Below, in pieces: positions 1,024-7,859 of a DNA stretch of 24,546 nucleotides (within the stretch, counting starts at the first letter, position 1; every line of letters begins with the position of its first letter). Origin of the DNA: a virus. Lineage: Duplodnaviria; Heunggongvirae; Uroviricota; Caudoviricetes. Where the stretch lies: IMG/VR virus record IMGVR_UViG_2872164251_000005; one strand, given 5' to 3'. Position numbers and translations under genes: made by a program. The notes below the pieces were generated by a model. That model was not told the origin of the DNA, ran no database searches, and worked only from the letters and a program-made list of their open reading frames with translations.

Positions 1024-2286
1024 TGAGGTAGCCTGAGTTTAACGGACACTCCTTCCTGAAATAGAATGGCATCAGAAGGAGCTAATAATGAGCAGAAAAA
1101 CCCAACGTTACTCTAAAGAGTTCAAAGCCGAAGCTGTCAGAACGGTTCTTGAAAATCAACTTTCGATCAGTGAAGGCGCTTCCCGATTATCTCTTCCTGA
1201 AGGCACTTTAGGACAATGGGTTACCGCCGCCAGAAAAGGGCTCGGTACTCCTGGTTCCCGCACGGTGGCTGAACTGGAATCTGAAATTCTGCAACTGCGT
1301 AGGGCGTTAAATGAAGCTCGCCTTGAGCGAGATATATTAAAAAAAGCAACAGCGTATTTTGCACAGGAGTCGCTGAAAAATACGCGTTAATCGAACAATG
1401 GCGACAACAATTTCCCATTGAAGCGATGTGTCAGGTATTTGGTGTATCCAGGAGCGGTTATTACAACTGGGTACAGCATGAACCCTCAGACAGAAAACAA
1501 AGTGATGAGCGGCTAAAACTGGAGATTAAGGTGGCACATATCCGCACTCGCGAAACATATGGAACCCGGCGGCTCCAGACGGAGCTGGCAGAGAATGGCA
1601 TCATCGTTGGTCGTGACCGACTGGCACGTCTTCGTAAGGAGCTGAGGCTACGCTGTAAGCAGAAACGCAAGTTCAGAGCGACTACGAACCCGAACCACAA
1701 TCTGCCAGTTGCGCCAAATCTGCTGAACCAGACGTTCGCTCCTACAGCACCAAATCAGGTCTGGGTGGCGGACCTGACGTATGTTGCCACACAGGAGGGA
1801 TGGTTGTACCTCGCTGGCATCAAAGATGTTTATACGTGCGAAATTGTCGGCTACGCCATGGGAGAGCGCATGACAAAAGAGCTGACAGGTAAAGCCCTGT
1901 TTATGGCGCTCAGGAGCCAGCGCCCACCTGCCGGGCTAATCCACCACTCTGATCGAGGTTCACAGTACTGCGCATACGATTACCGGGTCATACAGGAGCA
2001 GTTTGGTCTGAAAACATCAATGTCGCGTAAAGGTAACTGTTACGACAACGCTCCGATGGAAAGCTTCTGGGGAACGCTGAAAAATGAGAGCCTGAGCCAC
2101 TATCGTTTTAATAACCGGGATGAAGCCATCTCAGTAATACGGGAATACATTGAGATTTTCTACAATCGTCAGCGTCGTCACTCTCGTCTGGGGAATATCT
2201 CCCCGGCAGCCTTCAGGGAAAATATCATCAGATGGCTGCTTAAAAAAAGAACAAATGGTAGTGTCCGCTATTGCCAGTACACCTCA
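1024..2286 (+). mobile_element. IS600: IS600 (IS3 family) copy 1, 1263 bp, TG...CA termini, no flanking target-site duplication
   Basis: Near-identical to the second copy at 6596-7859 (two substitutions noticed, one 1-nt difference in an A-run). Begins TGAGGTAGCC and ends TACACCTCA. Flanks are CAC on the left and CTT on the right, so there is no 3-bp duplication. Confidence 0.85.
1088..1390 (+). CDS. IS600 OrfA (IS3-family transposase N-terminal, helix-turn-helix part)
   Basis: 100-aa ORF MSRKTQRYSKEFKAEAVR, preceded by AGGAG. An A7G slippery run at 1339-1346 sits near its 3' end, the expected -1 frameshift site for OrfAB fusion. Confidence 0.9.
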   Translation: MSRKTQRYSKEFKAEAVRTVLENQLSISEGASRLSLPEGTLGQWVTAARKGLGTPGSRTVAELESEILQLRRALNEARLERDILKKATAYFAQESLKNTR

Positions 2287-2388
2287 CTTATCGACGACGA
2301 GCAGTTTGATGAAACCAATATTGTGCGCGGACTGCCTGTTCCTGGTGGTCGGTTGGGGATAAAAATCACAGAGCTGGAGTGTGCATGA
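1426..2388 (+). CDS. IS600 OrfB (transposase catalytic part); C-terminus altered by a 1-nt deletion so the frame runs out of the IS
   Basis: Same protein as copy 2 OrfB up to ...PAAFRE. Copy 1 has A4 at 2219-2222 where copy 2 has A5 at 7791-7795, so the ORF continues 48 codons past the copy 2 stop and beyond the IS end at 2286. In-frame with OrfA in the -1 frame. Confidence 0.8.
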   Translation: MCQVFGVSRSGYYNWVQHEPSDRKQSDERLKLEIKVAHIRTRETYGTRRLQTELAENGIIVGRDRLARLRKELRLRCKQKRKFRATTNPNHNLPVAPNLLNQTFAPTAPNQVWVADLTYVATQEGWLYLAGIKDVYTCEIVGYAMGERMTKELTGKALFMALRSQRPPAGLIHHSDRGSQYCAYDYRVIQEQFGLKTSMSRKGNCYDNAPMESFWGTLKNESLSHYRFNNRDEAISVIREYIEIFYNRQRRHSRLGNISPAAFRENIIRWLLKKRTNGSVRYCQYTSLIDDEQFDETNIVRGLPVPGGRLGIKITELECA

Positions 2389-3074
2389 ATAACCAGTATT
2401 TACAGTTTGTTCGTGAGCAGCTCATTATCGCCACCGCTGATTTGAGTGGGGCGACAAAAGGTCAGCTTGAAGCCTGGCAGGAGAATGCCATGTTCGATAC
2501 AGGGCGTTACAGGCGTAAAAAAATCCGGTACCGCGATGAGGTGACCGGAAAAATGATAACGCGGGATAATCCACCAATCCCGGGAAAACAATCACTGGCG
2601 AAGGGGGCGTCAATTCCTCTGGTCAGTCAGGTTGCGTTTTCGACATCATCGTGGCGGCGGGCTGTTCTGTCTCTTGAAGAGCACCATAAAGCCTGGTTGT
2701 TGTGGTGTTACAGCGGAAGTATTTGCTGGGAGTATCAGATCACCATAACCCACTGGGCGTGGGAAGAGTTTAAGGCTCATTCTGGCACTAGGAAAATTGC
2801 AGAGAAAACACAGGAACGCCTGAAAAAATTAATCTGGCTGGCGGCGCAGGCGGTAAAAGCAGAACTTTTTGGTGGGGAAGGTTATGAATATCAGGAGCTG
2901 GCATTACTGGCGGGAGTAACAACCAAAAACTGGTCCAAAACATTTACTGCTCACTGGGTTGTAATGAAACACATTTTTCACCGACTGGATAGTGAGGCTT
3001 TATTGTTTGTGATGAGAACACGTTCAGAACAAAAAGCGGCATTTTCAAAGCAAAGTATTGCAAAAGTAGATTAA
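2385..3074 (+). CDS. Phage protein, candidate late-gene antiterminator (Q-like) by position
   Basis: 229 aa from the ATG at 2385 (the track starts at GTG 2379). The ATG overlaps the upstream stop as ATGA. It lies immediately upstream of a hairpin plus T-run and a tRNA cluster, the arrangement seen downstream of Q in lambdoid phages. No sequence motif was recognised, so the function is positional inference only. Confidence 0.4.
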   Translation: MNNQYLQFVREQLIIATADLSGATKGQLEAWQENAMFDTGRYRRKKIRYRDEVTGKMITRDNPPIPGKQSLAKGASIPLVSQVAFSTSSWRRAVLSLEEHHKAWLLWCYSGSICWEYQITITHWAWEEFKAHSGTRKIAEKTQERLKKLIWLAAQAVKAELFGGEGYEYQELALLAGVTTKNWSKTFTAHWVVMKHIFHRLDSEALLFVMRTRSEQKAAFSKQSIAKVD

Positions 3075-3136
3075 AAGGCATATATTTCATGCAAATCTGA
3101 TACTTTGCCGATTTTGTACGCGATGGTAAAGTAAGC

Positions 3137-3162
3137 AAAACCCGCCGCCGAGCGGTTTTTTT
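3137..3162 (+). terminator. Intrinsic terminator-like hairpin plus T7 after the Q-like ORF (candidate tR'-type late terminator)
   Basis: GC-rich stem AAAACC(C)GC / GCGGTTTT with a short loop, followed by TTTTTTT at 3156-3162. Confidence 0.5.
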
Positions 3163-3250
3163 ATGCCTGAAAAATGGCACAGGACGTTAAACGTGCTGGT
3201 GGTCAGATGAGTTTGCAGATGTGATGACATATGGTTATTATTCTGCCTCC

Positions 3251-3327
3251 GGCCCTTTAGCTCAGTTGGTCAGAGCGAGCGACTCATAATCGCCAGGTCG
3301 CTGGTTCAAGTCCAGCAAGGGCCACCA
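3251..3327 (+). tRNA. tRNA with CAU anticodon, most similar to tRNA-Ile2 (lysidine type, ileX/ileZ-like) rather than tRNA-Met
   Basis: Manual cloverleaf: 7-bp acceptor stem GGCCCTT/AAGGGCC, anticodon loop CT-CAT-AA, T-loop GTTCAAGTC, 3' CCA encoded. Closely resembles the E. coli ileX sequence as remembered. Confidence 0.8.
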
Positions 3328-6507: not shown

Positions 6508-6595
6508 GAATGCCATCCGCAATCTGAACAGCCTTGATACCCGTATGGTGCCACAGGCCAGCGCATGGGCGATAAACCGTGTGGCACAGAAAGCG
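6494..6595 (+). pseudogene. Z: Lambda gpZ-like tail protein, 5' fragment (34 codons) cut by IS600 copy 2
   Basis: ATG at 6494 overlaps the FII 3' end. Translation MKGLENAIRNLNSLDTRMVPQASAWAINRVAQKA then runs into the IS left end at 6596. Confidence 0.8.
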
Positions 6596-6659
6596 TGAGG
6601 TAGCCTGAGTTTAACGGACACTCCTTCCTGAAATAGAATGGCATCAGAAGGAGCTAATA

Positions 6660-6962
6660 ATGAGCAGAAAAACCCAACGTTACTCTAAAGAGTTCAAAGC
6701 CGAAGCTGTCAGAACGGTTCTTGAAAATCAACTTTCGATCAGTGAAGGCGCTTCCCGATTATCCCTTCCTGAAGGCACTTTAGGACAATGGGTTACCGCC
6801 GCCAGAAAAGGGCTCGGTACTCCTGGTTCCCGCACGGTGGCTGAACTGGAATCTGAAATTCTGCAACTGCGTAAGGCGTTAAATGAAGCTCGCCTTGAGC
6901 GAGATATATTAAAAAAAGCAACAGCGTATTTTGCACAGGAGTCGCTGAAAAATACGCGTTAA
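6660..6962 (+). CDS. IS600 OrfA
   Basis: 100 aa, identical to copy 1 OrfA except R to K at residue 72. A7G slippery site at 6911-6918. Confidence 0.9.
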   Translation: MSRKTQRYSKEFKAEAVRTVLENQLSISEGASRLSLPEGTLGQWVTAARKGLGTPGSRTVAELESEILQLRKALNEARLERDILKKATAYFAQESLKNTR

Positions 6963-6997
6963 TCGAACAATGGCGACAACAATTTCCCATTGAAGCG

Positions 6998-7816
6998 ATG
7001 TGTCAGGTATTTGGTGTATCCAGGAGCGGTTATTACAACTGGGTACAGCATGAACCCTCAGACAGAAAACAAAGTGATGAGCGGCTAAAACTGGAGATTA
7101 AGGTGGCACATATCCGCACTCGCGAAACATATGGAACCCGGCGGCTCCAGACGGAGCTGGCAGAGAATGGCATCATCGTTGGTCGTGACCGACTGGCACG
7201 TCTTCGTAAGGAGCTGAGGCTACGCTGTAAGCAGAAACGCAAGTTCAGAGCGACTACGAACCCGAACCACAATCTGCCAGTTGCGCCAAATCTGCTGAAC
7301 CAGACGTTCGCTCCTACAGCACCAAATCAGGTCTGGGTGGCGGACCTGACGTATGTTGCCACACAGGAGGGATGGTTGTACCTCGCTGGCATCAAAGATG
7401 TTTATACGTGCGAAATTGTCGGCTACGCCATGGGAGAGCGCATGACAAAAGAGCTGACAGGTAAAGCCCTGTTTATGGCGCTCAGGAGCCAGCGCCCACC
7501 TGCCGGGCTAATCCACCACTCTGATCGAGGTTCACAGTACTGCGCATACGATTACCGGGTCATACAGGAGCAGTTTGGTCTGAAAACATCAATGTCGCGT
7601 AAAGGTAACTGTTACGACAACGCTCCGATGGAAAGCTTCTGGGGAACGCTGAAAAATGAGAGCCTGAGCCACTATCGTTTTAATAACCGGGATGAAGCCA
7701 TCTCAGTAATACGGGAATACATTGAGATTTTCTACAATCGTCAGCGTCGTCACTCTCGTCTGGGGAATATCTCCCCGGCAGCCTTCAGGGAAAAATATCA
7801 TCAGATGGCTGCTTAA
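6998..7816 (+). CDS. IS600 OrfB (transposase catalytic domain), apparently intact
   Basis: 272 aa ending FREKYHQMAA, with the stop inside the IS. The track ORF starts at the first Met; true expression is expected as an OrfAB fusion by -1 frameshift. Confidence 0.9.
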   Translation: MCQVFGVSRSGYYNWVQHEPSDRKQSDERLKLEIKVAHIRTRETYGTRRLQTELAENGIIVGRDRLARLRKELRLRCKQKRKFRATTNPNHNLPVAPNLLNQTFAPTAPNQVWVADLTYVATQEGWLYLAGIKDVYTCEIVGYAMGERMTKELTGKALFMALRSQRPPAGLIHHSDRGSQYCAYDYRVIQEQFGLKTSMSRKGNCYDNAPMESFWGTLKNESLSHYRFNNRDEAISVIREYIEIFYNRQRRHSRLGNISPAAFREKYHQMAA

Positions 7817-7859
7817 AAAAAGAACAAATGGTAGTGTCCGCTATTGCCAGTACACCTCA

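Follow-up and report, generated by a model that had tools for sequence, protein, structure and literature searches.

We analyzed a window of 24,546 nucleotides (IMG/VR virus record IMGVR_UViG_2872164251_000005; positions below refer to this whole stretch of DNA), which carries two copies of the insertion sequence (IS) IS600 in the same orientation: copy 1 at 1024-2286 and copy 2 at 6596-7859. The window matches the chromosome of Shigella flexneri serotype 3b strain SFL1520 (CP032513.1; PMC6424224) with 100% identity, and the whole of it is a single defective lambda-like prophage remnant located between yecE and yecD. Our results make it highly probable that the two IS600 copies arrived separately in the decayed SFL1520 prophage, that copy 1 is a deletion scar and copy 2 a recent arrival, that together they bracket the intervening segment by coincidence, and that this segment could be deleted.

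The two IS600 copies and their separate histories

The initial annotation described two near-identical, directly oriented IS600 copies, and a repeat search and a pairwise alignment both recovered the pair at these positions. Copy 1 is 1263 bp long and copy 2 is 1264 bp long, and the homology between them ends sharply at both ends when they are aligned together with 50-bp flanks. Three differences separate the copies: two substitutions (T in copy 1 and C in copy 2 at IS position 169; G in copy 1 and A in copy 2 at IS position 279) and a single base missing from copy 1 at IS position 1197 (GGG-AAAA vs GGGAAAAA in copy 2). A 1.26-kb repeat with 99.8% identity cannot be attributed to chance. Over 1264 bp, each copy shares 99.6-99.7% identity with IS600 as annotated in RefSeq (references named "IS3-like element IS600 family transposase", including those of E. 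coli O26 11368 and FDAARGOS_944), and the IS600 coordinates on the plasmid pINV likewise span 1264 bp (PMC5629016). The open reading frames (ORFs) are those of an IS3-family element, with orfA matching HTH_Tnp_1 and orfB matching HTH_21, rve, rve_3 and rve_2 (Pfam). An A7G slippery motif, of the A-rich type associated with −1 frameshifting, is located at IS position 316, and a fused transposase product of 385 amino acids (aa) is annotated for copy 2 in CP032513. The terminal inverted repeats are of the TG...CA type, TGAGGTAGCCTG and TGAGGTGTACTG (reverse complement) agreeing at 21 of the first 28 positions. Copy 2 is flanked by a 3-bp target-site duplication (GCG/GCG), and copy 1 (CAC/CTT) has none in SFL1520 and none in the ancestral form of the locus. 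This lack of duplication indicates that copy 1 is a rearrangement junction, not that it falls outside IS600. More generally, IS600 is among the five ISs that have expanded in all Shigella, where each chromosome carries 229-348 ISs (PMC7373316).

Copy 2 (+ strand; intact orfA 6660-6962, orfB 6998-7816, A7G at 6911) is a recent simple transposition into the tail-completion gene Z with the usual 3-bp duplication. The gene that it breaks is Z and not FII, and the break falls at codon 34: translation places the 34 N-terminal codons of Z at 6494-6595 (+), and the remainder of the gene lies at 7860-8351 (+; Pfam Minor_tail_Z, 2e-39, profile positions 33-190). The GCG duplication occupies 6593-6595 on the left and 7860-7862 on the right. 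We compared this locus across the 27 long contigs obtained by a look-up with the tail tube protein V (21 index blocks with contigs >1 Mb). A precise empty site is present in the long contigs with a single IS600 and in five related contigs with the exact FII protein, obtained by a look-up with FII (L014-L018), where 6595 is joined to 7860 through a single GCG; the flanks of this site are 99.95-100% identical in these five, which encode an intact Z protein of 196 aa, also found in L031-L039. No IS600 was detected in or upstream of Z in 26 of the 27 long contigs, and only SFL1520 has copy 2. All but one of those 26 contain a single copy 1 and an intact Z (25 contigs), and L040 begins inside Z. 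Finally, a chimeric 'Z protein that starts in the right end of IS600 was found in seven contigs only, namely SFL1520 and six drafts.

These junctions also bear on whether copy 2 could be an artefact of the hybrid nanopore/Illumina assembly, i.e., a misplaced copy of a repeat, which we consider scarcely credible. IS600 is highly repeated in Shigella, and the odd private differences that SFL1520 presents in the nearby tRNA genes could be polishing errors, but the insertion displays a clean 3-bp duplication and the junction between the right end of IS600 and 'Z recurs on six independent draft contigs (e.g., L042 from GCA_053146675.1, whose first 117 nt are IS600). The presence of this junction in six drafts rules out an assembly artefact.

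Copy 1 (+; orfA 1088-1390, orfB from 1426) presents a different picture. Its orfB carries a 1-bp deletion near 2216-2222 that shifts the last codons, and the resulting ORF (1426-2388; 320 aa) exits the IS. A protein look-up with this fusion found no match, probably owing to its annotation as a pseudogene. To its left lies int', a truncated tyrosine integrase gene (1-1023, − strand; Pfam Phage_integrase, 9e-19; PHROG 1) which is missing its first 83 codons, corresponding to the Arm-binding domain, and which shares 99.6% identity with the complete int carried by the prophage at yecE in enteroinvasive E. coli (EIEC) CFSAN029787. To its right, 2287-2378 (+) contains the last 92 bp of a rusA-like gene (Holliday junction resolvase), as indicated by E. 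coli prophage matches annotated as RusA and then Q. With 2287-4231 as the query, the E. coli prophage matches begin at its base 1, and position 2287 is most probably the right-hand breakpoint of an old deletion at copy 1. The CFSAN029787 prophage, also at yecE, is far more complete, with a full int, xis, an early region, a cluster of four tRNAs and a holin, and the equivalents of window positions 1023 and 3234 are 18.4 kb apart in this prophage versus 2.2 kb in the window (of which 1.26 kb is IS600). The joining of int to the 3' end of the rusA-like gene without duplication indicates that copy 1 is the remnant of an IS600-associated deletion of the early region; judging from the size of this region in the intact relative, it marks the earlier loss of about 17 kb of early genes.

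Copy 1 was found in every S. flexneri long contig examined, and its right junction (IS600|CTTATCGACG) is identical across the aligned S. flexneri loci. The ancestral left junction (...AAATCAC|TGAGG) is located 59 bp upstream of the intact int start, and the ancestral flanks are also CAC/CTT, with no duplication there either. In SFL1520, the left junction reads ...CCTTCAC|TGAGG, and a further 308 bp are missing, flush with the left end of the IS. This loss (L031 3228-3535 vs window 1020-1023) takes the start of int, with 83 codons and the Arm-DNA-bind_2 domain; it is shared by some other assemblies, among them AFGW01 and AKMX01, and most S. flexneri retain the 308 bp. The breakpoints of the 308-bp deletion share a 4-bp TCAC microhomology.

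We infer that these earlier deletions arose by insertion of a second IS600 followed by recombination. It is possible, with a distinctly lower probability, that the transposase of IS600 produced both the missing duplication and the flush 308-bp loss directly, by an intramolecular transposition resulting in adjacent deletion, and that a future loss would follow the same route. Both deletions end precisely at an IS terminus, which is the signature of adjacent deletion but is equally expected from a local hop followed by recombination. Against the transposase route, Lee et al. ascribe most of the short IS-flush deletions of E. coli to local hopping and recombination between direct copies (PMC5009759), the transposase of copy 1 is frameshifted in SFL1520, and the sequence is unable to tell the two routes apart. 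Rearrangement at copy 1 may also have taken another form: in L036 (JAUTDC010000007.1, 1-3536), the left side of copy 1 is occupied by a different truncated integrase gene, an mlrA/yehV fragment, IS629 and a gene for a yehW-like permease. If the assembly is correct, this would imply that copy 1 swapped flanks in nature with another IS600, located in a second prophage, by inversion or by translocation; alternatively, the contig could be misassembled.

The order of events at the two copies is given by GCA_013917925.1, which combines an int' bearing the 308-bp deletion (L023) with an intact Z (L018): the old deletion at copy 1 came first, then the 308-bp flush deletion, and then copy 2. In addition, the private changes of copy 1 (G279 and delta-A1197) are absent from copy 2, which indicates that copy 2 derives from another genomic IS600 and that the two neighbors have not been homogenized. 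A single base sets copy 2 apart from the consensus of the other IS600 copies, and the copy-to-copy sequence comparison revealed no gene conversion between the two.

The initial annotation further saw in the pair the outline of a composite element, while doubting that it had transposed as a unit because no duplication was apparent on copy 1. The flanks of copy 1 (CAC/CTT) agree with this last point, and the doubt is firmly upheld by copy 2's own GCG duplication, by the empty sites and by the unmatched outer flanks, whereas the outline itself proved to be a coincidental bracket of two independent insertions. A composite transposon would be the 6.8-kb unit IS600-Q-tRNAs-ISEc20-FI-FII-IS600, moved or able to move via its outer ends. 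As in Tn10, Tn5 and Tn9, two copies of one IS surround a unique segment; both copies are full-length and direct with good terminal repeats, the transposase of copy 2 is intact, and an IS3-family transposase could in principle pair the left inverted repeat of copy 1 with the right inverted repeat of copy 2. In contrast to these transposons, the pair shows no shared outer duplication (CAC to the left of copy 1, GCG to the right of copy 2), its copies were acquired at different times, and the module was found in no other context: none of the 5,426 complete E. coli genomes covers at least 80% of window positions 1-10000. The precise empty site of copy 2, moreover, is found in relatives that already bear copy 1. 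The interior runs collinearly with the resident prophage in every relative, and these relatives lack copy 2 alone, copy 1 and the interior being in place. A composite transposon is exceedingly improbable and, as an account of the history of this locus, effectively refuted.

Prospects for loss of the bracketed segment

The two separately acquired copies form direct repeats of 1.26 kb with 99.8% identity, so that the DNA between them can be deleted by homologous recombination. The succession of events starts with the old IS600-associated deletion at copy 1, which removed the whole early region (~17 kb in the intact relative). The 308-bp deletion flush with the left end of the IS then removed the int start in the SFL1520 lineage, copy 1 also gained its frameshifting 1-bp deletion, and copy 2 transposed into Z from another genomic IS600. 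Homologous recombination between the two copies would take out 5,572 bp, comprising one IS, Q, the four tRNAs, ISEc20, FI, FII and the N-terminus of Z. The product of the deletion would be int'-IS600-'Z, and the excised circle, without an origin, would be lost; an unequal sister exchange could instead duplicate the unit. The two junctions are already present, separated by only 1.26 kb, and the deletion would therefore make no new short junction.

The initial annotation had predicted excision between the direct copies. The geometry and the expectation from RecA-type recombination support this prediction, for which there are precedents with IS600 and IS1A, and its product, int'-IS600-'Z, was unseen. 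An absence of structural variation at the locus had been put forward as grounds for rejecting the prediction; such variation does exist, in the form of the presence or absence of copy 2, the 308-bp deletion and the exchange of flanks in L036.

The closest precedent comes from the plasmid pINV of S. flexneri, where a pair of 1264-bp IS600 copies accounted for one of 17 spontaneous deletions of the type III secretion system island (Pilla et al. 2017, PMC5629016). As here, the pair consists of direct copies of the same IS in the same species, and the intervening DNA was lost spontaneously. The two cases differ in that the deletion on pINV concerned ~48 kb of a plasmid, conferred a selectable (Congo-red negative) phenotype and was observed experimentally, whereas here the segment is 4.3 kb of a dead prophage on the chromosome and its deletion is predicted. 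In mutation-accumulation lines of E. coli, IS-IS recombination was estimated at a rate of 4.5e-5 for each genome and generation, and deletions of <=3 kb made up nearly half of those due to IS recombination. The same lines recurrently lost ~11.5 kb of CP4-6, a cryptic prophage of E. coli K-12, through a pair of IS1A copies (Lee et al. 2016, PMC5009759). CP4-6 resembles our locus in that a direct IS pair surrounds part of a cryptic prophage, and its deletion is neutral and recurrent. However, the elements are IS1 in that prophage and the IS3-family IS600 in ours, and the deletion was seen repeatedly there while none was seen here.

Some observations weigh against our reading. The int'-IS600-'Z product was seen in none of the 27 long contigs, which is a weak test given that only SFL1520 carries both copies; with a single such complete genome, and with short-read drafts that collapse IS600, this absence carries little weight. 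How the earlier deletions at copy 1 came about cannot be read from the sequence, and the TCAC microhomology would also fit slippage or end-joining. Lastly, SFL1520 is a hybrid MinION/MiSeq assembly, although the placement of copy 2 is still backed by independent drafts.

It could also be argued that the bracket is not poised for loss, the island formed by Q and the tRNAs being kept by selection because its rare-codon tRNAs are useful for AT-rich virulence genes, with deletions being purged. The 1.9-kb Q-tRNA stretch is kept in all 25 long contigs reaching far enough upstream, IS-associated deletions took everything on both sides of it, and the four tRNAs still fold and score well. Yet shared ancestry explains this retention equally, because all strains have inherited the same junctions by descent, and tail genes of no conceivable function have also been retained, which makes selection an unlikely explanation. 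If the tRNAs (AUA, AGA and others) were selected after all, the SFL1520 bracket would offer a natural experiment, with deletion possible yet selected against, or with duplication of the unit favored; we hold this to be slightly more doubtful still.

We expect loss of the segment by recombination between the copies to be near-neutral, since the prophage is already dead and the bracket does not include the virulence gene ipaH; this would change if the tRNAs mattered, to which we give a low probability. The ipaH cargo would be unaffected by the deletion. The bracketed loss would represent one more neutral step in a dead prophage rather than a notable event, and it belongs to the ordinary IS-driven erosion of prophages that is already well documented in Shigella. 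The locus constitutes a worked example of stepwise erosion, with an old scar, a 308-bp flush deletion and a new insertion enabling the next deletion. The insertion of copy 2 in Z could serve as a lineage marker, and the locus could serve as a neutral reporter for the rates of IS600-IS600 recombination.

Contents of the bracketed segment

The interior extends over 2287-6595 (4309 bp). The initial annotation listed Q, a tRNA cluster, an IS110-family element, FI and FII as its contents, all of which are correct, and left the interruption of Z unmentioned. The Q antiterminator gene (2385-3074, +) is full-length (229 aa; Pfam PF06323 Phage_antiter_Q, 8e-90, profile 1-217/220; PHROG 304), and the exact protein is present in many S. 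flexneri assemblies. It is followed by four tRNA genes (CAU, Arg-UCU, Thr-UGU and Gly-UCC; 3251-3561, +; ARAGORN; Rfam RF00005, 56-70 bits), and the same cluster is found in the prophage of EIEC CFSAN029787. The tRNA-CAU is assigned to Met by ARAGORN, and RefSeq annotates its EIEC homologue as Ile. A search of the window against Rfam yielded nothing besides these four tRNAs. Relative to the other S. flexneri copies, SFL1520 presents five clustered differences, at 3266 (+T), 3271, 3377, 3386 and 3405, located in tRNA-CAU and tRNA-Arg, and the three differences in tRNA-Arg correspond to the allele of the EIEC CFSAN029787 prophage. This patch (3266-3405) looks like a short gene conversion from the tRNA cluster of a paralogous prophage, or like a polishing artefact.

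The IS110-family element is ISEc20 (~4232-5692, −; transposase 4263-5459; Pfam DEDD_Tnp_IS110 and Transposase_20), with 99.3-99.4% identity over ~1461 bp to the "IS110-like element ISEc20" of RefSeq (query 671-2131 of 3562-5722). The EIEC prophage matches the window up to position 4239 and then continues with its holin, where the window has ISEc20. The element thus stands in place of the holin and abuts FI, so that the lysis, terminase and head genes are missing. Beyond it lie the head-completion genes FI (5723-6124, +; Pfam Packaging_FI, 9e-40) and FII (6136-6507, +; Pfam Phage_attach, 8e-9), which were assigned to PHROG 92 and 82.

A second ISEc20 was found ~700 bp past the end of the window, inside yecD (window-equivalent ~25242-26704; L027 6994-8456). 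The two ISEc20 copies are direct and 99.6% identical, and they bracket FI, the tail genes, lom, ipaH and dinI (~19.5 kb). The geometry of this pair is like that of the IS600 pair, but the ipaH effector gene is inside the bracket. One draft contig (L005; GCA_053146675.1, JBRQSI010000232.1; 1600-2849) contains the right end of IS600, Q and the tRNAs followed by a holin and a lysozyme, with no ISEc20. We withdrew this contig as a candidate for the state preceding ISEc20, which would have placed the deletion on the ISEc20 side after copy 1, as it carries seven extra substitutions in 3700-4239, three of which are common to the EIEC prophage. It therefore stems either from recombination with a paralogous prophage or from a chimeric assembly across a ~1-kb repeat.

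The prophage remnant and its chromosomal surroundings

The window is preceded by cutC, torYZ, cmoBA, yecN and yecE, the last of which marks the attL side, and it is followed by dinI, the second ISEc20, yecD, aspS, nudB, yebC and ruvC. Its lambdoid nature is apparent from an integrase gene at a chromosomal attachment site and from late genes in the lambda order (Pfam/PHROG). The order of the genes is int, Q, FI, FII, Z, U, V, G, T, H, M, L, K, I, J, lom and the tail fibre gene, those from U to the tail fibre gene being located from 8352 onward (Pfam, PHROG). The remnant has none of the early, lysis, terminase or head genes, and U and H are broken; the prophage is dead.

The ipaH gene (21946-23697, −) encodes a NEL E3 ligase of 583 aa that is full-length, with LRR_TTSS and NEL domains. 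It is located at the right end of the remnant, beside the tail fibre gene and dinI, and it is the likely reason for the persistence of the right end of the prophage. The cryptic lambdoid prophages that carry ipaH in S. flexneri are likewise lambda-like remnants with structural genes disrupted by ISs and an ipaH effector by the tail-fibre end. We found no essential difference between these prophages and the window, which is one such island located at yecE. The term "ipaH island" reportedly comes from the genome paper of S. flexneri 2a 301. No copy of the exact locus was found among the complete E. coli genomes, and a related intact prophage was found in EIEC strains only. The genome of SFL1520 contains 15 phage regions, mostly cryptic, and seven chromosomal ipaH genes (PMC6424224).

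The tail genes of the remnant are decaying through small mutations (8403-8747 and 10223-13053). The gene for gpU (8403-8747) is frameshifted, and is in frame only over profile positions 36-130, and an intact protein of 132 aa is encoded in L036 and L039. The tape-measure gene H (within 10223-13053) is split into two ORFs; it is missing ~92 bp that are present in other strains (L031 12149-12240), beside a 10-bp overlap of the alignments.

On the other side of the remnant, yecE is shortened to 148 aa in some strains. In GCA_013917925.1 (L023 1032-3054), the truncation is due to an element that carries phage genes and a gene for a large serine recombinase, and in CP026098 (L033 1-2192) to an IS3-family element. 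The truncation of yecE in some strains indicates that the attL side of the locus has been a repeated target.

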